17,324 nucleotides of DNA from an uncultured Nitrososphaerota archaeon (GCA_964636085.1 CAZWPQ010000040.1:1-17324), one strand, 5' to 3'; shown: positions 9 to 13,275, counted from the first letter of the stretch. Numbers and translations: made by a program. Notes: generated from the letters alone by a model not told the origin.

Positions 9-3000
9 TTGGAATCCCGCTTCCCACAAATCGAATACAGATACCTAACCAGAGAAGAAGCAAGAGAGCTCTTCAAATTTAAAAAGAAAACAACTGGAGT
101 AGTCCTAGGATATCCAAGTAGAGCCATGGGAACGGATCAAAAAACTCAAGATAAGCAGGCAAGATATCAATTCGAAAGTGTTATGCGTAGCCTTCTCCGC
201 TCCAATTCGACTATTACAATCGTAGCTAAGCCCGTAAGAAGAGACATAGTAATTAGTGGCTTGATGGAGCTCCGTGAGTTGGCTTCGAAGATAGAGAGCC
301 GAATTAGGGGTACGGATGGATGGAGCTTTACTATCTCGCTACCAATGCTGTATGCATATACAAATCTCCTTAACACAAGTAGGGTTTTAAGCGCCACATT
401 TCAGCAAAGAATAACGGATGCGAGAAGCATTAGTAATATTAAGCAACATACAACACTATACTCAAAAACCATGTCCCAACAGATTTCTAGAGGAACGAAT
501 ATTAGTAGCACGAGGACTTGGAGCCAATCTGTCGGGGTTGTAAAATCTAAACAAATAACAATATCACAATCCGTCACAACCAGCAAGACACTAACACAGC
601 AACACAGCTTTAGCTTAATGAAACAATACCAACAATCAGTAGGGCAAACGGTAAGTTCGTCAAGGAGTGTTGGGATTAGTAAAAGTATACAAACAAGCAT
701 GGTTCGAGGGATCAGTCTAAGCAAATCTGTGGGCATGTCCACTACATTGAGCCGACAGGTTATGTTTCAGCAAAGCGATAGTTTTGTTATATCAAGAGGA
801 GAGAGTTTCGGTACTAGTTTAACTCGAGGACAAGCACTTACCCAAAGTATAACGAGAGGCAAAACTGTTGGGCATACGGAATCATCATATTCATCGGATA
901 TGTCAGGTAAAACGGAATATGATAATTTAAGTACTAGAACTGCATCGAGCACAACAACAACGGGCTCATCACATAGTGGTGGATTCAGCTTTACCCCATT
1001 TGGGATTGGTGCAAAAGCACAGTGGAGTGATTTTAAGAGCACATCTTATACATCCAGCAATACGCATTATCATGGCTACACAACATCATCGTCCCATATT
1101 GAAGGCAGTGGAAAAAGCGATACTAGGATGGATACTTTCAGCTTTATGAGAGGAGAAACAATAAGCACCAGCTTTTCCCAGCAACACATAATTTCCCAAT
1201 CCATTTCACATGGACAAACTTTTACCCGCGGGACTTCATTTTCTCAGTCCGTTGGAAGAACTGTTTCTATTGGCAGTAGTGTATCTAGTCAATATGGAAT
1301 CGCGACGGGCTGGACACAACAGAAAGTTATATCTCAGGGTGTTAGTAGTAGTGTTTCTAGGACGTATGGTGTTGCCAAGGGCACAACAATTAGTAGGGCC
1401 GTTAGTGTTGGTGTTAGTCATACCAAGGGGATAAGCCAAACTAAGGGTATTAGCTATACTAGTGTTTCGAGTTCTGGCGGGAGTAGCGGCGTGGTCATAA
1501 TTAATGTTAATACTGATGGGATTAGTTATAGTTCTGCCGTTGGGAGTGTGTATGGTGTTAATCTAGGTAGTAGTAGGAGTGTTGGCAGTGTCCAGGGTAC
1601 AGCTTATGCCAGGGGGATTGTTCATGGGGTTACTCAGAGTATTTCTGGGGGTCTTATTCCTTCCCTGGGCTTCCACCATACTAGGGAGTGGAAGAACGTT
1701 ATGTTGGAGGGGCTCGCATATTATCTTAGGGAGTTGGAGCGGAGGTATGAGGCGATGAAGAATGTTGGTGCTTGGAAGGTTTCGGTTTTTGTTAGTGGTG
1801 ATGATGAGGGTGATGTTAGGAGTATTGGTAGTGCTTTGGAGGGTGCTCTTAGGGGGCCGGTGTCTTCTCCCAGGACTGTTCGTTTCTTTATTCCCGAAAC
1901 AATGAGCCTTAGGGATTATCTTAATAAGTGTGCTCAGGTTTGTTGTAATGTCGATATTAATGATCCTAATGGCTTTGCTTTGGAGCGTAAGTTGTTGGAT
2001 GTTGTTCTTAGCACTGTTGAGTTAACTGCGTGTAGTCATTTTCCTAGGGTTGAGATACAGGGAATAAAGATCACTGAGGATATTCCCCCGATTTTCCTTC
2101 AGAGTCCTCCAGAGTTTAGTGTTGAGCCCGATCTTAGTATTGGGCGTATTATCGATGTGCATACTGGTGAGCCATCACCGATTTGGCTCAAAATCCCCAG
2201 CACTAGGTTGTTGCATATTTTGATTGCCGGCAAGACTGGTTGTGGAAAAACCAATACGGCGTTTCATTTGGTATTGCAACTATTCAGGCTAGGCTGGGAC
2301 ATAATAGTGCTCGACTGGAAGAATACTTGGCGTCAATTGCTATATCTTCTTGGCGAGGAGGAGAGGAAGAGGCTTAGGATTTATACTTTGGCTAATCCCG
2401 ATGTTGCTCCCTTAAGGATAAACTTGCTAAGACCCCCTAGGGGAGTTGGTTGGCCCGATTGGGCCGATATTGTCTCGGAGGTATTCGCATATAGCTATAT
2501 TCCGCACCCTAGGAGCAGGAGTATTGTGCGGGAGGAGCTAGATGAGTTATACATTAAGGAGACGAAGACTGGCAGGGTGCCCACTCTCAAGGATTTGTAC
2601 GAGAGTATCGAGAGGAGAATTAGTAGGACCGACCCGCGGGTTGCTGGCCGTGGTGAGATTGAGAGTCTTAATGCTGTTCGCTCTCGCCTGTGGGAGTATA
2701 CTAATAAGCATAGTAAACTCTATATGTTCAATCAGGACTCCGTGGAAATTGAGGACTTGTTTATTGAGAGAGACACTAACCGTATTGTTGTTCTGGAGAG
2801 CGCTGGGCTATACAGTAATCATAAGACATTTATACTCTCTCTCATCGCATCGGCCATATACTCATACTACATCACTAAGACACATAGGAGAGCTCGCCCA
2901 TTACTCGTGGTATTGGAGGAGGCGAATCATCTCATCCCACCAGAAAACATAATCTACGAACAATTACACGTGTATGAGTCGATATGGGAAACGATGTTTC

Positions 3001-3353
3001 GCGAGATGCGAGAGAAAAATGTATACCTAATGGCTATCGCACAGATACCATGTATGTTGCCTAGAAGCATACAGATGAACACACCATTCAAGATCCTGAT
3101 GAATTTAGGTGTAGCAGATACCACGGCTAAGGCTGATGTTGATGTGTTCTTGGAGGCGATGGGTCTAGACCCAAGATGGGATCACAGGCATGTGAAGCGT
3201 TTCGCTGAGAGAATGCCCGTTGGATGGGGTATGGTGAGGATACCATATTGGGAGAAACAATGGGATGCTTGGCCATACTTGGTGCAGTTCCCATTAGTAT
3301 TGAGGGGCAAATATCCTAGTGATGATGAGATTAAGAGGCTTGTGGAAAAGTAG
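9..3353 (+). CDS. HerA/VirB4/FtsK-superfamily P-loop ATPase (DUF87-like) with long Ser/Thr-rich insert; probably 5'-truncated by the window edge
   Basis: Walker A HILIAGKTGCGKT (~2214-2252), IIVLDWK strand, Walker B LLVVLEEAN, then REMRE and IAQIP motifs typical of HerA/VirB4/TraG ATPases. Residues ~125-550 are an S/T/G-rich alternating repeat. Confidence 0.85.
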   Translation: MESRFPQIEYRYLTREEARELFKFKKKTTGVVLGYPSRAMGTDQKTQDKQARYQFESVMRSLLRSNSTITIVAKPVRRDIVISGLMELRELASKIESRIRGTDGWSFTISLPMLYAYTNLLNTSRVLSATFQQRITDARSISNIKQHTTLYSKTMSQQISRGTNISSTRTWSQSVGVVKSKQITISQSVTTSKTLTQQHSFSLMKQYQQSVGQTVSSSRSVGISKSIQTSMVRGISLSKSVGMSTTLSRQVMFQQSDSFVISRGESFGTSLTRGQALTQSITRGKTVGHTESSYSSDMSGKTEYDNLSTRTASSTTTTGSSHSGGFSFTPFGIGAKAQWSDFKSTSYTSSNTHYHGYTTSSSHIEGSGKSDTRMDTFSFMRGETISTSFSQQHIISQSISHGQTFTRGTSFSQSVGRTVSIGSSVSSQYGIATGWTQQKVISQGVSSSVSRTYGVAKGTTISRAVSVGVSHTKGISQTKGISYTSVSSSGGSSGVVIINVNTDGISYSSAVGSVYGVNLGSSRSVGSVQGTAYARGIVHGVTQSISGGLIPSLGFHHTREWKNVMLEGLAYYLRELERRYEAMKNVGAWKVSVFVSGDDEGDVRSIGSALEGALRGPVSSPRTVRFFIPETMSLRDYLNKCAQVCCNVDINDPNGFALERKLLDVVLSTVELTACSHFPRVEIQGIKITEDIPPIFLQSPPEFSVEPDLSIGRIIDVHTGEPSPIWLKIPSTRLLHILIAGKTGCGKTNTAFHLVLQLFRLGWDIIVLDWKNTWRQLLYLLGEEERKRLRIYTLANPDVAPLRINLLRPPRGVGWPDWADIVSEVFAYSYIPHPRSRSIVREELDELYIKETKTGRVPTLKDLYESIERRISRTDPRVAGRGEIESLNAVRSRLWEYTNKHSKLYMFNQDSVEIEDLFIERDTNRIVVLESAGLYSNHKTFILSLIASAIYSYYITKTHRRARPLLVVLEEANHLIPPENIIYEQLHVYESIWETMFREMREKNVYLMAIAQIPCMLPRSIQMNTPFKILMNLGVADTTAKADVDVFLEAMGLDPRWDHRHVKRFAERMPVGWGMVRIPYWEKQWDAWPYLVQFPLVLRGKYPSDDEIKRLVEK

Positions 3354-3375: not shown

Positions 3376-4086
3376 ATGAATCTTGACCCCGTGGATATCG
3401 TTCTCATGACCCTCCGCATAGCTGAGTGTAGTGGTCAACCTTTTTTGTTTCTCGAGCATTTGATCAGGGAATCCAAGAGGTTAGCATCGAGTATACTTAA
3501 CTATGATATCTATAGTGCAAAAGAGTTAAGAAAATCTATCTGTCCGTCTAATTTGAAGTATTTTTATCTGTCCACAGCAAGTAAGAATCTAAAGGTTTGT
3601 CTTACAGCCGAGGGGGTATCTCGGGCTGATGAGTTATTAGGCACGATAAAGTCTCCTCAAGATCTTATCGTTCAAAGGATAGAGCCCTTTGTTGTTACAT
3701 TAAAGGTAGTTTATAATTTCGCGAAGATAGACACAATAACATATTGCAGACACTACTTCCTTGTGGATGTATGTTTTATAAGAAGAGATACATTAGAAAT
3801 TGTTGATGATCCTCGAGAAGGAGACGATGCTACAGGCATTATTAGAGTAATCAGTAAATCGCTTAGAAGAGAAAGAGTAATCGTCAATAAATTAAGCCAT
3901 AAAACATTGGCGGAAGCCCCCCGCATAGCAACACTATTGCAATTTTCACTACAATACTTCGATAAAATAGCTAAAACAAACAGAATATTAGCAGAAACAC
4001 TGGCAGGACTATGTGCGATAAAGAACCTCTTTGGTTGCAAAATACACAACAAAGAAATCATATGGAACAATAGAACCCTATTTTAG
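3376..4086 (+). CDS. Hypothetical protein (236 aa), possible N-terminal winged-helix; likely co-transcribed with the ATPase
   Basis: Long ORF. ATG 3376 follows GGGGTGAT (SD), so it is preferred over the 3319 start. 'VCLTAEG' resembles a wHTH wing (weak). Confidence 0.65.
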   Translation: MNLDPVDIVLMTLRIAECSGQPFLFLEHLIRESKRLASSILNYDIYSAKELRKSICPSNLKYFYLSTASKNLKVCLTAEGVSRADELLGTIKSPQDLIVQRIEPFVVTLKVVYNFAKIDTITYCRHYFLVDVCFIRRDTLEIVDDPREGDDATGIIRVISKSLRRERVIVNKLSHKTLAEAPRIATLLQFSLQYFDKIAKTNRILAETLAGLCAIKNLFGCKIHNKEIIWNNRTLF

Positions 4087-4093
4087 CGTAAGA

Positions 4094-4101
4094 TTTATAA
4101 G
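4094..4101 (+). promoter_or_regulatory. Archaeal TATA box TTTATAAG for the 74-aa ORF (mirror copy at 5445-5452 on the minus strand)
   Basis: Consensus-like TATA in an AT-rich tract, ~30 nt before the GC-rich leader. Confidence 0.6.
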
Positions 4102-4129
4102 TATTGTGTTGATATATTTTTATTATAGC

Positions 4130-4222
4130 TGACCGGCTGGGAGTGGGGGAGTTGTGGGGAGGGCTCCCAGTCGGTATCTGCCCGCCACGGCCTCCCCTAA
4201 CCCCAAGCTAAGTGGCGGGAGA
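4130..4222 (+). ncRNA. Putative structured 5' leader RNA, copy 1 (two hairpins with complementary loops)
   Basis: Stem ACCGGCTGGGAG/CTCCCAGTCGGT (one G-U), linker ATCTG, stem CCCGCCAC/GTGGCGGG containing the GTG start. The G-rich loop 1 is complementary to the C-rich loop 2. Confidence 0.6.
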
Positions 4223-4436
4223 ACTCGAGGAATCTGAAGTGGACGAGTTGGTGTTGGAAACAATAAAGGGTATCAACGTACTAGACCACAATGATTTTCA
4301 TAATCCTCATAACTTAAACAATTTCATACAGTTGGTCGACGCATTTAGTATACTAATTAACTTTGTGCGACAGAGTAAAATAGAAATAGCATTAAGAATG
4401 AACGATGTTTTAATAGTGATAAGACCAGAGAACTAA
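4212..4436 (+). CDS. Small hypothetical protein (74 aa, acidic N-terminus)
   Basis: ORF starts at the GTG inside the repeated leader, exactly as the TFB-like gene does, and is followed by a T-tract. Confidence 0.6.
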   Translation: MAGELEESEVDELVLETIKGINVLDHNDFHNPHNLNNFIQLVDAFSILINFVRQSKIEIALRMNDVLIVIRPEN

Positions 4437-4445
4437 CAACACTAA

Positions 4446-4488
4446 TTTTTGATTTTTCTTTTTTCTTTTTCTGGAAAAAAGAAAAAGA
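4446..4488. terminator. Bidirectional oligo-T terminator between convergent genes
   Basis: T/C tract on + followed by GAAAAAAGAAAAAGA (a T tract on -), lying between the two stop codons. Confidence 0.7.
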
Positions 4489-5334
4489 TTATTGAGACAT
4501 GAGTTTTCTTGCATATCGTAAAATTGTGAATCTTGATACCCCTGATGCCTCTTCTATTATCCTTGCTGATATTCTTGATGACAAATGTTTACTTGCTAGA
4601 TACACAAGTACAGCGGCTGCTACCTTTGGCGATAGTCTACTGATATTTTTGTGTATCTTGTTGATTAGTAACAAATGCATTTGGTCAAGGATCTTTTCTT
4701 TTTTCTCTGGATTAATTGGTATCATTGTAATTATTTGTTTAGCATAGGTCAATATGTTTTCATTTCTATACCCACTATATCTATTTACAATGCTCTTTAG
4801 TTTAATAAACTTCCCCCATGTAACCTTGTATTTTGTTTTTCTTCCTATCTCGCGGAGATATCTAATTGGATTCATTGGTAGGATTGTATTAAGGTATTCG
4901 TATAGGAAAAACACCACAACATCTGTAAGTAATATTTTCTCTTTTCGTACTATGGGAAATATTTCATTAACATTCTTGAAAATAGAGTCTATATCAATAG
5001 GTATGTCAGTGCCAAGAACATTTTTTATAATATTGTACACAATTTTCTTAGTTCGGTGTTTCCAAAGTCGCTCTAAACTTCCTGCAGAGTTTTTGAATGT
5101 TTCTTTGTATGTTTCTGTGGGTGGACTGTTACGTTCCAATGTGAATTTCAAAAATCTCTTTGCCTTTTTCTTCGAAAGTATGTAGGTCTTGCCATTATAA
5201 TATATCGCGAAACCACGGGAGATGGCTTGAATAAAGCCCCATTTTGGTATTATAATTTTTTTCTCTTTATCAAGCACAAAAGCCTTTGTTACTTTCTTAA
5301 CAAATTCAGCGAGTTCGTCAAAATCTCCCGCCAC
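4489..5334 (-). CDS. Divergent TFB (TFIIB)-like cyclin-fold/HTH protein without N-terminal Zn ribbon
   Basis: C-terminus RLSPKVAAAVLVYLASKHLSSRISARIIEEASGVSRFTILRYARKL matches the TFB cyclin-repeat pattern (GRSPxxxAAAxxYxAS...TxxEVAxxxGVSxxTI). The protein has no cysteines. Confidence 0.7.
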   Translation of the reverse strand: MAGDFDELAEFVKKVTKAFVLDKEKKIIIPKWGFIQAISRGFAIYYNGKTYILSKKKAKRFLKFTLERNSPPTETYKETFKNSAGSLERLWKHRTKKIVYNIIKNVLGTDIPIDIDSIFKNVNEIFPIVRKEKILLTDVVVFFLYEYLNTILPMNPIRYLREIGRKTKYKVTWGKFIKLKSIVNRYSGYRNENILTYAKQIITMIPINPEKKEKILDQMHLLLINKIHKNISRLSPKVAAAVLVYLASKHLSSRISARIIEEASGVSRFTILRYARKLMSQ

Positions 5335-5471
5335 TTAGCTTGGGGTTAGGGGAGGCCGTGGCGGGCAGATACCGACTGGGAGCCCTCCCCACAACTCCCC
5401 CACTCCCAGCCGGTCAGCTATAATAAAAATATATCAACACAATACTTATAAATCTTACGCTAAAATAGGGT
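5324..5471 (-). repeat. Right arm of the perfect 148-bp inverted repeat (promoter plus leader copy 2 for the TFB-like gene)
   Basis: Reverse complement of 4075-4222. Confidence 0.97.
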
Positions 5472-5544
5472 CCTGTTGAGCCGAGATAGCTTATTCCTAG
5501 AACACTGTGAGATCATAATTTTTAAAAAGATTTTATTATAATTA

Positions 5545-5628
5545 TATTATTGGTGACCCCCTCTCTCAGAGGGGGGTATCTGCCCGAGTTCCCAGAGGGG
5601 GAGAGTAGATAGATCTGGGGCTCGGGAT
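5545..5628 (+). ncRNA. Diverged third copy of the structured leader, upstream of tnpB
   Basis: TATTATnGnTGACC, hairpin, GGTATCTGCCCG, hairpin, CGGGA are conserved while stem interiors differ but still pair. TATA-like TTTTTAAAAA at 5519-5528. Confidence 0.6.
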
Positions 5629-7053
5629 TTGACCGCCCACGTCTCCCCCAAACGCGTGGGCGGTAAAGGAGCACAAAAGCGGGCACGAAGCTATAGTATT
5701 TATATCGATACTGATGAGCCTACTGGTAAAGTTTTGTGGGACCTAGTAACGAGATATATGTGGCTCCTCCAATACACCATAAACTATATTAGTGCTAGGG
5801 TACGGTGGAGCGAGGAGCCTGTGGATAGCTACTACACTATTGTTGTCACTCCAGAACTCAGAACACAGTACAAGGAATACAAAAGCTATGAGGAGAAGGT
5901 AGAGAGCACGAGGAAGTGCTTGGAGATTCAGGGCAAGAGGTACGAGGAGTTCAGGCACTGGGACAAGAAGTATAGGCGATGGCTCGCCGGTTTTAGGGTG
6001 TACTATACTGCAAAACGCAGAACCCCAGAGCTCCCAGAATACAAGGAGATCTATGATGAGCTAAGGCCAAAACTACTCGAAATGTGGGGCGAATACGCAG
6101 CACACTATGTTGACTCAATAATACAGTATGCCTATAATACCGTGATGAAGTCATGGAAAGAACTCTATGAGGAAGGCATGGCGCGAAAGAAGAAGCCCGT
6201 GATGAGGAGACGCACCATTTACCTCAAAAATACGTTGTTTCGGGTGAGAGATGGAGAGCTAATAATAACGCTGATACCAAGGAAGCGTTATCTCAAGGTA
6301 CCAATAGATGGCCAGTGGTTCCTAGAACGCGTAGACGGATGGAGACTCGGTGCCGTGTTGATCAAGGAGCTTGAGCCTAGGGGGAGGTATCGAGTAATCC
6401 TCCAGTACACAAAGGAAAGGGAAAAGTTTGAACCAGAAAGTTATCTGTCAATAGACCTGAACATGGACACTATTGATTTATTGCTCTACGCACCAGGCAC
6501 AACGAAGCTATGGATAACCATAGACTGGTCGGAGCTAATTCGATGGATTAGGAAACACCACGATGAGAGATCCAAAATACAGAGTAGACTGGCCCATGCA
6601 AGGAGGGATAATCTACGGGGCGCTCTAGAGAGGTTAAGTATAAAATACCGAAACTATACCAAGGACATCGTGAACAAGACCGCCAAATACATTTTATCAC
6701 TGGCCGAGGCATATAGCGCAGTAATAATTGTCGAAGACCTAAAGAAAAATCAAATGTACAGGAATAAGGAATGGAACAAAGAGCTCCAAATGCGTCTGTG
6801 GAAGCGACTAATCCAAGAACTGAAGAAACGATGGTTCGTCAGGGAGGTAGACCCATACTGCACAACAAGAACATGTAGCAACTGCGGCTCCAAGAAAACC
6901 ATAGTCCAAGGCCTAACAGTAAAGTGTACAAAGTGCGGCATCACCATCAACCGACAGTTAAACGCATGCATAAACATAATGAAGAAAGCAACAAACATAA
7001 CCATAACAAACCAGATAAAGAGAGAAAAAATCAGCATCAAGGATATATTGTAG
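5629..7053 (+). CDS. tnpB: TnpB/Cas12f-like RNA-guided protein (IS200/IS605 OrfB family), RuvC-III Asp->Gln, possibly nuclease-dead
   Basis: RuvC-I SIDLN (D276), RuvC-II IVEDL (E369), Zn finger CSNC..CTKC, RuvC-III NRQLNACINI (Q443 where DRDxNA has D). No tnpA is adjacent. Confidence 0.88.
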   Translation: MTAHVSPKRVGGKGAQKRARSYSIYIDTDEPTGKVLWDLVTRYMWLLQYTINYISARVRWSEEPVDSYYTIVVTPELRTQYKEYKSYEEKVESTRKCLEIQGKRYEEFRHWDKKYRRWLAGFRVYYTAKRRTPELPEYKEIYDELRPKLLEMWGEYAAHYVDSIIQYAYNTVMKSWKELYEEGMARKKKPVMRRRTIYLKNTLFRVRDGELIITLIPRKRYLKVPIDGQWFLERVDGWRLGAVLIKELEPRGRYRVILQYTKEREKFEPESYLSIDLNMDTIDLLLYAPGTTKLWITIDWSELIRWIRKHHDERSKIQSRLAHARRDNLRGALERLSIKYRNYTKDIVNKTAKYILSLAEAYSAVIIVEDLKKNQMYRNKEWNKELQMRLWKRLIQELKKRWFVREVDPYCTTRTCSNCGSKKTIVQGLTVKCTKCGITINRQLNACINIMKKATNITITNQIKREKISIKDIL

Positions 7054-7055
7054 CC

Positions 7056-7367
7056 CCTGGGCCGGCTGTGTTTTTCACCCGGCCCCAATAAAGGTCTCAA
7101 CCCGAAAAGGCCGGCCCGGGGGCCTCTGGGTACTTGATACAGCGACCAACCCTGGCACCGTTACACATGGCTCCCGGGCCGGCCTAGGTGGCTGGGGTCC
7201 CGCCTGGGCCCGATGTGCGATGCCGTGCTCCCAATGAACCCAGAGGGGGACAAGGCTGAGGGCCGAAGCCGTGTGTGGGCAGTGGACAATTTTAGCATTA
7301 ATCATGATCATCGGTGTTATGTTTGTATATGTTTGTCCACAAATGTCCACATACGGCAGACCCCGAC
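7056..7367 (+). ncRNA. Putative omegaRNA/guide-RNA scaffold of the TnpB-like protein
   Basis: GC-rich block right after the stop codon, with stems 7058-7064/7079-7085, 7109-7124/7169-7184, 7186-7191/7200-7205 and 7268-7289/7333-7357 (several G-U pairs). Possible pseudoknot 7194-7199/7359-7364. Confidence 0.7.
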
Positions 7368-8432: not shown

Positions 8433-8891
8433 CTATTTGCTTTCCCTCTGTTTCTTCTGCAAGTTTTCCAAAATTTCATCTGGTGTGGCGACCTTAAGTC
8501 CATTCTCTACACCCTTTATCCTCTGGAAATCCTGCAGGTTTCTCGTCACTATCGTTAAGTTATGGGTAAGTGCTATTGACGCTATGAATACATCTCGAAG
8601 CCCTACTGGTTGCCCAATTTTATGAAGACAAGCGTCTATTCGTGCTGCCCTCTCTGCAGGATCCTCGCCAAAGGGAAGTACGACTATCTGTCTCCTCAAA
8701 CTATCAATATCCTGGATCTCTTTTGCTAACCCAACTCTTAGAGGGCCATAGTAGAGTTCATATAGCGTGATTGATGTTATTGCTATCTCATCCTTAAGCA
8801 TTAGAACAAGCTTCGCTGCTGGACTATCCCTATTCTTCAGAAATTCTATCACAACATCTGTATCTAGGCAGTACTTGACCAGTTCTTCCAC
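8433..8891 (-). CDS. vapC: VapC PIN-domain toxin
   Basis: YCLDTDVVIEFL, ITLYELYYG, DVFIASIAL and IVTRNLQDF motifs; overlaps the upstream antitoxin. Confidence 0.93.
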   Translation of the reverse strand: MEELVKYCLDTDVVIEFLKNRDSPAAKLVLMLKDEIAITSITLYELYYGPLRVGLAKEIQDIDSLRRQIVVLPFGEDPAERAARIDACLHKIGQPVGLRDVFIASIALTHNLTIVTRNLQDFQRIKGVENGLKVATPDEILENLQKKQRESK

Positions 8892-9109
8892 CTTTCCCTA
8901 ATCATGCCAAGAAGTACACTCTCGTCAACATCGGTCCACGAGCCAGCAAGCTCCTCAATCCTCTTTATCTTTCTAACGATTATCTTCTCACCACTAATGG
9001 ACACATCCACAAGATCCCCTTCCCTAATCCCGACAACCCTACTTATATCTGCTGGTATAGTTATCTGTCTATTCCTAGTAACCTTTACAATAACCACCAA
9101 AGTCACCAT
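8864..9109 (-). CDS. vapB: AbrB/MazE/SpoVT-family antitoxin
   Basis: KVTRNRQITIPADI...GIREGDLV...KIIVRK is the swapped-hairpin motif; directly upstream of vapC. Confidence 0.9.
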   Translation of the reverse strand: MVTLVVIVKVTRNRQITIPADISRVVGIREGDLVDVSISGEKIIVRKIKRIEELAGSWTDVDESVLLGMIRERWKNWSSTA

Positions 9110-11269: not shown

Positions 11270-13275
11270 GAGACTGTCTATGGTTTTTATTTGCTGGTTC
11301 TAGCCAGAAGACCAACCCCACAAAACTCCGACAAAAAACATGGGCAATCCAACCGCTTGGAAAACTCACTAGGAACAGCATGACGGCCAAAGACCTCTCT
11401 CATAAGAGAGGCAATAACATTCACTTCTAGAGGCTCAAGCTTAGCCTCATAACCAACACCCTTACCACCAAGGAATTTCGTCAAAGACAAACCATAGTGC
11501 TCACGAACATAAGCGTCGAGCATGGAGCCGATTATGAGAGTATTCCAAATAACGGCCCTAACAAGAATCTCCACCATCATCGTATGGCATAGTTGTGACG
11601 CCAAGACATTATCATATGGCACCAAGTAAGAGAAGATCTCCTCAACAATGCCACGGACACGTCTAAGATCCCCTATATGGCGCCTCTGCAGCCACCTCAA
11701 TACCATAAGCGTTTCATCGTCGGATACATCGCCCCTCGGGCATGCCACTGGTACAGTATGTTGTTCCAGAAGATCCCTAGAGAAAGATGTGGCCCAGTAT
11801 TCTTTGTCGCCAAGAGCGAACGCGACAAAGAAATCATATCTGAAGTCAAACTCGATGTCCTCCACAGACCATCCAAAGTCTATGTCCAAGATGACCCTAC
11901 TATCAATATCCACCAATCCATGAAACTTTATACCGGCTCTGTTATATGGATAGAACATACTCTTCGTTGTCGCTACAGTTGAGTCTATCGCCATCAGCAA
12001 GACCTCCCTCGTTTTCCTCCCATCTACGACAATTCTCGCTAGGAAATTCACGAGTTGTTGGAGAGTCGAGATGTCAATCCTATACACATCCCTCTGAATT
12101 GTCGCATGATCTGGAGCATTTCTGCACAACGTGAATGGCTGTGGGGATAGCATGAGGGACTCCAGAAACCTATAGCTAGTTGTCTTCCTGAACATCCTCG
12201 CCGCCATAGATATCCTTGTTATTACTTTTGGCGGGATGTTGTATCTAGATGCAAACATTGCTAGTAGTGTATCTAGCAATGGAAAAACCCATCTTGATGC
12301 CTCCTCGGAGGACTTCCTTGGTATCGAGGATCTATCGGTCTTGAAGCCAGATTCAAAATAAAATATCTCCCCGCATATCCCGCATTGTAGCTTTGGTTTG
12401 CCATAACTGTTAACGACTACTATCTCTTCGCTACCACATACGGGGCATGAGACAAAATAGGTATATCCTTGTCTAAGCAACGTGATTATGGACTGCGTGT
12501 GGCCACAATCAGCACACTTCCTTCTCAGTATCACTATTCTTCCAGAGTTAACTAGATACTTCTCAAAAAGCCTTAACTTCCCCCCACAGTAGATGCATCG
12601 GGTGAGTCTGAGACCAAGCACCTCCTCAATATTCACGGGCTCTATGCGGCGTTTCTTGCGCTTCTTATGTGGAAGCTGTCCATTAGGATCTACGTATATC
12701 ATAGCTCTACACTTTGGGCATCCTAGTATGATCATTCTCACGCCGTCGCTCTTCCTAGTGTATGTTTTATGATGCCACATCCACCTTTTGCACCCTTTGC
12801 AATATGCCTCAACCTCGCCGCACTTCTTGCATTTAAATACCTTGATTCGGGTTTTGTTTTTCCTTATCTCTGTGACATCTTCGAGGTCTTCATGCACCCC
12901 AATACACTTCTCATTGGTTATAACTTCGGAGGGTGCTAGCGATATGGATTTTCCACAGTTTGGGCATGTAAACCTCTCTACGTGCGTCCCGTCTTTCCTC
13001 GTGTAGTTGTCGTTTCTCCATTTCCTAGTTCTGCATTTCAGACATATTACTTCTAGGATTTTCCCACATTTGGCGCATACGCGGACAAGCACCCCTTTTC
13101 CGTCTCGCCGCTTGATCTTCCTCTCGACTATACCTTCTTTCGGATGTCCGCACTCGTCCATGTATACCATAGAAAACTGGCGTTAAAAGCGTGCTGAAGG
13201 CACATGGTTTTTGTCGGAGTTTTGTGGAGTGAGCCTTCAGGCTAGAACCAGCAAATAAAAACCATAGACAGTCTC
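11270..13275 (-). mobile_element. Insertion sequence (IS5/IS1182-like, DDE), 2006 bp, 76-bp terminal inverted repeats
   Basis: TIRs 11270-11345 and 13200-13275 (first 36 bp perfect, 69/76 overall) begin GAGACTGT and enclose a transposase. No target-site duplication. Confidence 0.88.
11287..13170 (-). CDS. DDE transposase (IS4/IS5 superfamily) with an N-terminal array of Zn ribbons
   Basis: PDHATIQR, MAIDST, KFHGLVD, GDKEY and RGIVEEIF motifs; ten CxxC pairs in the first ~270 aa. Confidence 0.85.
   Translation of the reverse strand: MVYMDECGHPKEGIVERKIKRRDGKGVLVRVCAKCGKILEVICLKCRTRKWRNDNYTRKDGTHVERFTCPNCGKSISLAPSEVITNEKCIGVHEDLEDVTEIRKNKTRIKVFKCKKCGEVEAYCKGCKRWMWHHKTYTRKSDGVRMIILGCPKCRAMIYVDPNGQLPHKKRKKRRIEPVNIEEVLGLRLTRCIYCGGKLRLFEKYLVNSGRIVILRRKCADCGHTQSIITLLRQGYTYFVSCPVCGSEEIVVVNSYGKPKLQCGICGEIFYFESGFKTDRSSIPRKSSEEASRWVFPLLDTLLAMFASRYNIPPKVITRISMAARMFRKTTSYRFLESLMLSPQPFTLCRNAPDHATIQRDVYRIDISTLQQLVNFLARIVVDGRKTREVLLMAIDSTVATTKSMFYPYNRAGIKFHGLVDIDSRVILDIDFGWSVEDIEFDFRYDFFVAFALGDKEYWATSFSRDLLEQHTVPVACPRGDVSDDETLMVLRWLQRRHIGDLRRVRGIVEEIFSYLVPYDNVLASQLCHTMMVEILVRAVIWNTLIIGSMLDAYVREHYGLSLTKFLGGKGVGYEAKLEPLEVNVIASLMREVFGRHAVPSEFSKRLDCPCFLSEFCGVGLLARTSK

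Follow-up and report, generated by a model that had tools for sequence, protein, structure and literature searches.

Upstream of tnpB and its neighbours, the stretch of DNA analysed here (17,324 nt; GCA_964636085.1 CAZWPQ010000040.1:1-17324; hereafter the window) carries a repeated two-hairpin motif. The question is whether this motif is a structured RNA leader and, if so, what it does to the genes behind it. All three motif sites, 4121-4220 (+), 5326-5425 (-) and 5545-5626 (+), were found where a preliminary description had placed them, together with the 5' word, the 12-nt junction and the stems that it quoted. The first two, however, are the arms of one inverted repeat of 148 nt with zero mismatches. 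Thus, the locus offers two independent sequences and not three copies, as had been counted. The repeat takes in the promoter and the stop codon of ORF255, and for this reason copy 2 looks like a recent duplicate of copy 1. Across the genome (2.41 Mb, 39% G+C), the exact 12-mer occurs at these three places only. A structure-only scan returned the three copies and four weak A+T-rich chance matches, and the leader architecture is confined to these three sites in the host genome.

The register of the tnpB copy had to be corrected. It was described as two hairpins, and a third one (5632-5664), which holds the GTG start at 5656, had been missed. A covariance model built from two outside homologues only (L254 and L272) placed the tnpB copy at 5579-5669, copy 1 at 4127-4223 and copy 2 at 5323-5419. 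The homologous core of the tnpB copy is its second and third hairpins (5583-5664), not the first and second, which had been equated with the hairpin pair of the other copies (Table 1). The 12-nt junction, previously called invariant, turned out to be private to this locus. Its exact form is present in no outside leader, and the best match in 18 of 19 of them has 3-5 mismatches (the 19th is a short fragment at a contig end). In copies 1 and 2 the 12-mer links hairpin A to hairpin B, but in copy 3 it links the extra hairpin to hairpin A.

Table 1. Features of the leader-bearing region (window coordinates)
Feature	Coordinates	Strand	Remarks
Inverted-repeat arm 1	4075..4222	+	ORF255 end, promoter, leader copy 1, first ORF74 codons
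TATA-like box, copy 1	4094..4101	+	Predicted transcription start ~4124-4128, from standard archaeal spacing
Hairpin A, copy 1	4132..4175	+	Two SD-like G tracts in loop: 4145-4151, 4156-4162
Hairpin B, copy 1	4180..4220	+	C tracts 4191-4197 and 4201-4204 (latter ends at -8)
GTG start, copy 1	4212-4214	+	Opens 3' arm of hairpin B
ORF74	4212..4436	+	Small acidic protein, family not recognised
TFB-like (cyclin-repeat) protein gene	4489..5334	-	Under leader copy 2; best Atlas matches TFIIB repeat (score 0.92); homologues found
Inverted-repeat arm 2	5324..5471	-	TATA 5445-5452, hairpin A 5371-5414, hairpin B 5326-5366, GTG 5332-5334
TATA-like box, tnpB leader	5521..5528	+	Predicted start ~5551-5553
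Optional extra 5' hairpin, tnpB leader	5556..5577	+	'Hairpin 1' of the preliminary description; relatives have 0, 1 or 4
Hairpin A, tnpB leader	5583..5625	+	SD-like tract 5597-5604, 5' side of loop
Hairpin B, tnpB leader	5632..5664	+	Pyrimidine tract 5642-5649, ending at -7; GTG start 5656-5658
tnpB	5656..7053	+	~465 aa from GTG inside hairpin B, not TTG 5629
Structured right-end region (probable omega-RNA) and IS607-type right end	7056..7364	+	Identical terminus, differing flanks in six other loci

Architecture and range of the leader family

We tabulated 22 copies of the leader on 16 contigs, falling into about ten distinct types; the members are related within a narrow family, and these counts overstate their independence. 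The order of the parts is conserved: a TATA box, zero, one or four optional extra 5' hairpins, hairpin A and hairpin B. In 16 leaders a TATA-like box lies 33-40 nt upstream of the first stem; this spacing holds with two, three or six hairpins and with start codons at a distance of 108 or 290 nt. In two leaders the box has no clear counterpart. Start codons (ATG, GTG or TTG) fall within the first 0-5 nt of the 3' arm of hairpin B. Since this position holds across the family, tnpB begins at the GTG at 5656, and in the tnpB leaders inspected the hairpin-B start is the sole in-frame start before the conserved RSYS motif.

To the compensatory changes claimed for the stems, the corrected register was essential: the covariation is genuine, but only after this correction. 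In an alignment that had been fitted to the model, 25 of 26 pairs change on both sides and 95.5% of the cells pair. None of 500 shuffles reached the observed level, and slid controls paired at 32-41%. In an unfitted MAFFT alignment, 12 of 13 pairs of stem A and 4 of 9 pairs of stem B covary. By its position and its compensatory changes, the element is a structured cis-acting 5' leader between the promoter and the start codon, with a predicted transcription start. This bears out the view of it as a leader RNA selected for structure, as do the set distance to the TATA-like box, the blank Rfam result and a location away from IS ends.

A second small-RNA scaffold had also been proposed; the leader would then be an RNA in its own right, such as another RNA partner of TnpB. 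Its own TATA box, its compact fold and the tandem hairpins at some loci would suit such an RNA. However, a terminator does not follow, the start codon of the gene behind always falls in the last hairpin, the leader also heads genes on contigs with no tnpB in view, and the probable omega-RNA sits downstream of tnpB. We consider this reading very improbable. The tandem hairpins themselves, four small units with a repeated foot (L255:1575-1710 and L252:8545-8675), resemble a mini-array, but their variable parts are palindromic. A CRISPR or TIGR-type array, with its constant repeats and unstructured spacers, was rejected: here the variable parts form self-complementary stems, and a coding start is overlapped by the last unit. 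A K-turn or C/D box, a hammerhead core, an SRP Alu U-turn and a conserved upstream ORF were dropped by inspection, as was a G-quadruplex, for which four G runs exist in copies 1 and 2 only.

As the preliminary description supposed, the motif matches no known family: an Rfam scan at E<=1 gave zero matches in the window. In five homologous loci, the scan gave only sub-threshold chance matches to miRNA and CRISPR families, and the gathering threshold was reached by no family, including HEARO, the IS605-orfB motifs, riboswitches, ribozymes and SRP. Scans of genome, metagenome and viral collections with the originally proposed consensus found chance matches only. One of 241 12-mer sites passed a loose structure filter, and this was a G+C-rich stretch pairing through the 12-mer itself. 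A stricter pattern gave three bacterial matches, which received no score from model R2, and zero viral ones. A search for related loci with TnpB as the query returned no loci. Our search for papers on structured cis-regulatory leaders in Asgard archaea or on translation control of tnpB found very little, and no description of the motif itself.

Model searches found the leader in three of the five genomes of one Njordarchaeota genus; in 146 further genomes of the phylum, of which many are incomplete, they found no leader. Other copies lie on metagenome contigs. One congener genome (G003) is Candidatus Njordarchaeota GB_136, and the sequencing runs listed as containing the window contig are hydrothermal-vent metagenomes, with no RNA run among them. 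The metagenome range rests on protein look-ups. A second model, built from cassette-type leaders alone, finds the tnpB-type leaders at E of about 1e-8 to 1e-10, so both types belong to one family. Models R1 and R2 miss the long-type leaders (L252, L255 and L258), which were assigned by structure and position.

Loop pairing and the Shine-Dalgarno slot

The most conserved features of the leader are the pairing of loop A with loop B in the right register and the fixed position of a tract in the Shine-Dalgarno (SD) slot. Both were absent from the preliminary description. In host genes, -7 is the commonest end point of an SD motif (40 genes). At the start codons behind the leaders, the SD is missing from this normal slot, which is filled instead by a pyrimidine tract (a C-run or TCACY). 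The tract ends at -7 or -8 in all 22 copies despite a loop B of 11 to 39 nt and a stem B of 10 to 24 bp; in none of 531 host genes does a tract of this kind end at -7/-8. The tract of the leaders is the complement of an SD-like tract on the 5' side of loop A, which in most copies lies 55-75 nt upstream of the start codon. In the tnpB leader, tract 5642-5649 is an 8-bp complement of 5597-5604. The 16S tail, for which 16S genes of this genus and this order were read, pairs with the 5' part of loop A (-4.7 to -10.7 kcal/mol) but not with the slot (-2.4 to +0.9). Which of the two loops is SD-like is never swapped.

The two sides of the kiss covary, with GGGGA/TCCCC replaced in the long type by GGTGA/TCACC or TCACT. 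The long type has a second kissing helix of 10 bp whose sequence differs between L252 and L255 while the pairing is kept. Own partners pair over 5.1 bp versus 4.0 when permuted (p 0.0002, which is overstated, the sequences being related), and in 13 of 16 leaders the loop-loop duplex is better than composition-matched shuffles (p<0.05). In the two-tract leaders, the anchored kissing helix is merely 4-5 G-C pairs, and because these are invariant there is no covariation signal there. At 65 C, 16 of 18 leaders need 4.5 kcal/mol or more for the first 12 coding bases to open, the kiss not counted; for host genes the median is 2.1 and the 95th percentile 4.4 kcal/mol. In copies 1 and 2 the cost is low (3.0 kcal/mol) because of a competing nested refold.

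We propose that the element is probably a portable promoter-plus-5'UTR module that gates translation initiation and is closed by default. Hairpins A and B would fold side by side with their loops kissing. The kiss would hide the sole strong SD and stem B would hide the start codon. TnpB, the TFB-like protein and the small regulators would then be transcribed yet poorly translated by default. Translation would require that heat, the ribosome or a bound factor melt stem B or refold the leader. What would then stand at the exact SD distance from the start codon is the A/B helix or, having displaced it, the 16S tail. If this is correct, the family offers a small RNA that is backed by covariation and makes a precise prediction: the SD slot holds an anti-SD-like tract, with the SD-like tract docked on top.

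Pure repression would not demand a tract fixed within 1 nt of the SD slot, and the element may be partly activating. That the spacing is fixed beyond the needs of a lock suggests either that the ribosome reads this position, as at the split sites of T4, or that a cut there gives a leaderless mRNA. On the first option, the loop-loop helix would be a positive initiation element, either as the mRNA's own mimic of the SD:anti-SD duplex or as a remote SD handed to the 16S tail by strand exchange at the SD slot. We regard this as unlikely; if true, it would be a structure-based mode of initiation in Asgard archaea, employed as a swappable cassette for the joint control of TnpB (with Gln for the RuvC-III Asp), a paralogue of TFB and small winged-helix proteins, which may work together. 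On the second option, a nuclease or the RNA itself would cut the A-rich 3' side of loop B, with the kissing helix positioning the cut. A slot without an SD, the conserved CCCCAA word fixed 7-8 nt upstream of the start codon and the start codon at the very 5' end of the 3' arm would all be in keeping with this, and PIN-domain nuclease genes are frequent neighbours. However, such genes are common on islands of this kind anyway, a ribozyme core and an Rfam match are absent, and a cut would leave unexplained both the SD-like character of the loop-A tract and its shift to the SD core GGTGA. We consider a processing switch of this kind quite unlikely.

The autoregulatory operator of the preliminary description would, in modified form, involve the feet of the hairpins, and it could act together with the gate as its trigger. 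The junction had been taken for an invariant site that binds a protein or ligand; what recurs is only a locus-specific foot word of 3-5 nt. These words, which were hand-picked, are 66% identical within loci and 30% between them (0 of 5000 permutations). In an autoregulatory operator, a protein encoded by the element would bind this word and the extra 5' hairpins would be extra sites, which would agree with the four tandem units ahead of hairpin A in L252 and L255 and would be compatible with the gate. Nevertheless, unit duplication and gene conversion yield the same pattern (the repeat is perfect here, 88% in L248 and 93% in G002), a protein common to all loci is absent, and the 12-mer is not conserved. 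We hold the operator to be decidedly unlikely. Among the leaders and loci, neither a conserved leader peptide nor a trans factor was found.

Genes behind the leader and plausible rearrangement of the island

The genes directly after the leaders are IS607-type tnpB (including a clade merely 30% identical), TFB-like genes, ORF74-family genes and genes for small winged-helix-like proteins. The leader would mark a set of co-regulated cargo genes: TFB-like, ORF74, winged-helix and tnpB. Leader-bearing genes often adjoin the HerA-like ATPase and the ORF255 known from the window. The HerA/DUF87 ATPase has a long Ser/Thr-rich insert (window 9-3353, L274:3561-7133, L285:1614-5399) and is always followed by an ORF255 homologue and then by leader-bearing genes, a recurring island core. 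ORF74 has four homologues, all starting inside hairpin B; its predicted fold (pLDDT 71) gave a best Z of 5.0, which is uninformative, as are its family matches. A 164-aa HTH family occurs with ORF74 homologues in four loci (L249:839-1333, L285:6365-6859, L286:789-1322 and L288:1077-2051, doubled in L288) and is missing from the window. The window also contains a PIN-domain toxin with an AbrB-like partner (8433-9109), and comparable pairs occur near several related loci. At 11270-13275, 89-nt inverted repeats (85%) flank a gene for a 627-aa multi-zinc-ribbon transposase-like protein, without a Pfam match, that interrupts a surface-protein gene.

Close homologues of TnpB belong to IS607-type elements with a resolvase tnpA. 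The third acidic residue of RuvC (the RuvC-III Asp) is Gln in all nine close TnpB homologues (alignment A2), and in more distant order-level ones, among them the TnpB of L266, which is beside an IS607 tnpA. Judged by these alignments, the Gln is a family trait, and alone it is not proof of a dead nuclease. The IS607 tnpA is split by frameshifts in all three copies examined (L252:7960-8602, L253 and L249:356-846), and the breaks in L249 and L252 differ in position. Elements with a split tnpA may be non-autonomous.

The genes between the facing leaders behave as a cassette. Orthologues of ORF74 and the TFB-like protein (40% identity) are present in L248/L249 in reverse order relative to tnpB, between that locus's own leader pair, which is 88% identical; in L274 the TFB-like gene occupies the ORF255-proximal position. 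Facing leaders of one locus or genome agree to 88-100%, and most cross-locus pairs to 55-81%. This pattern fits recombination between facing leaders, with conversion, which would homogenise them, and inversion of the cassette between them. The orientation given here is as assembled; the contigs do not span the 148-nt perfect repeat, which can mislead an assembler. Unitigs of the likely source run break at 4104/4193/5353/5442, as a collapsed two-copy repeat predicts. In run X2, one contig joins window 4180 to 5327 (short side 22 nt, depth 8.7), possibly an inverted loop B or a repeat artefact. Inversion of loop B as a way to create an SD was rejected: the spacing would be 2 nt. In run X1, the depth is 63 on the ORF255 side (3501-4104) versus 24-37 over the cassette and tnpB (4193-6413), about double. 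Behind ORF255, a different strain or copy may have other genes.

A further reading is that the motif acts as DNA, as a transposon end, a recombination site or a cruciform of an invertible cassette. The pseudo-symmetric fold scores on the opposite strand too, and the cassette is reversed in L248/L249 and L274. However, we checked whether the motif is a known IS end, and the leader is internal: the IS607 element ends on the right at 7364, and in L249 and L252 the left end precedes tnpA. Changes compatible with G-U pairing, and a constant spacing to both TATA box and start codon, are signatures of RNA and translation, and many leader copies are single. As the main role, a DNA-level site is largely refuted and most improbable. 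The leader repeats plausibly drive rearrangement of the island all the same.

Comparison with known systems

The tnpB with its structured right end is like that of the IS607 family (serine-recombinase TnpA plus TnpB), and a resolvase-type tnpA and a left end are present in L249, L252 and L253; for the element of the window, they are not in view. Unlike in L266, where it abuts tnpA, tnpB has its own promoter and structured leader, and cargo genes separate it from tnpA.

Secondary structure restrains translation of selfish nuclease and transposase genes elsewhere. The homing endonuclease genes of the T4 family (I-TevI/II/III, segB, mobE) have hairpins that sequester the ribosome-binding site, with an ordinary SD in the stem (PMC2988022), and structure in the 5'UTR of IS200 tnpA restrains its translation (PMC4513863). 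The leader would act in a like manner. In those systems the SD stays in the stem, and translation is freed by an internal late promoter or adjusted by sRNA/Hfq. In contrast, the slot of the leader lacks an SD, an internal promoter is absent, and there is a second hairpin with loop-loop pairing. The split ribosome-binding sites of T4 genes 38 and 25, where a simple hairpin bridges 22-27 nt (PMC3014915), are similar in that RNA structure brings an over-distant SD to a working distance. The leader differs in the distance of its SD-like tract (55-75 nt in most copies), in the loop-to-loop docking of this tract and in its paired start codon.

The activating pseudoknot of ColIb-P9 repZ (IncI-alpha; also IncB and IncL/M rep) has a GUG start masked in a stem and is controlled by a leader peptide and an antisense RNA (PMC4705826). 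The leader shares with it the masked start, an upstream stem-loop whose loop has a short pairing partner immediately 5' of the start region, and the presence on a gene of a mobile element. By inspection of the leaders, no conserved start codon follows the loop-A SD, and a leader peptide and an antisense gene were not found. In ColIb-P9 the tract lies inside the inhibitory stem, upstream of the real SD, whereas in the leader it lies in loop B and replaces the SD. The slot also does not pair with the 16S tail, so a retained SD with competing pairing, as in ColIb-P9, does not apply. Taken on its sequences, the leader family is real, undescribed and restricted to one genus, and it is best classed as a variant of the start-codon-sequestering pseudoknot leaders.
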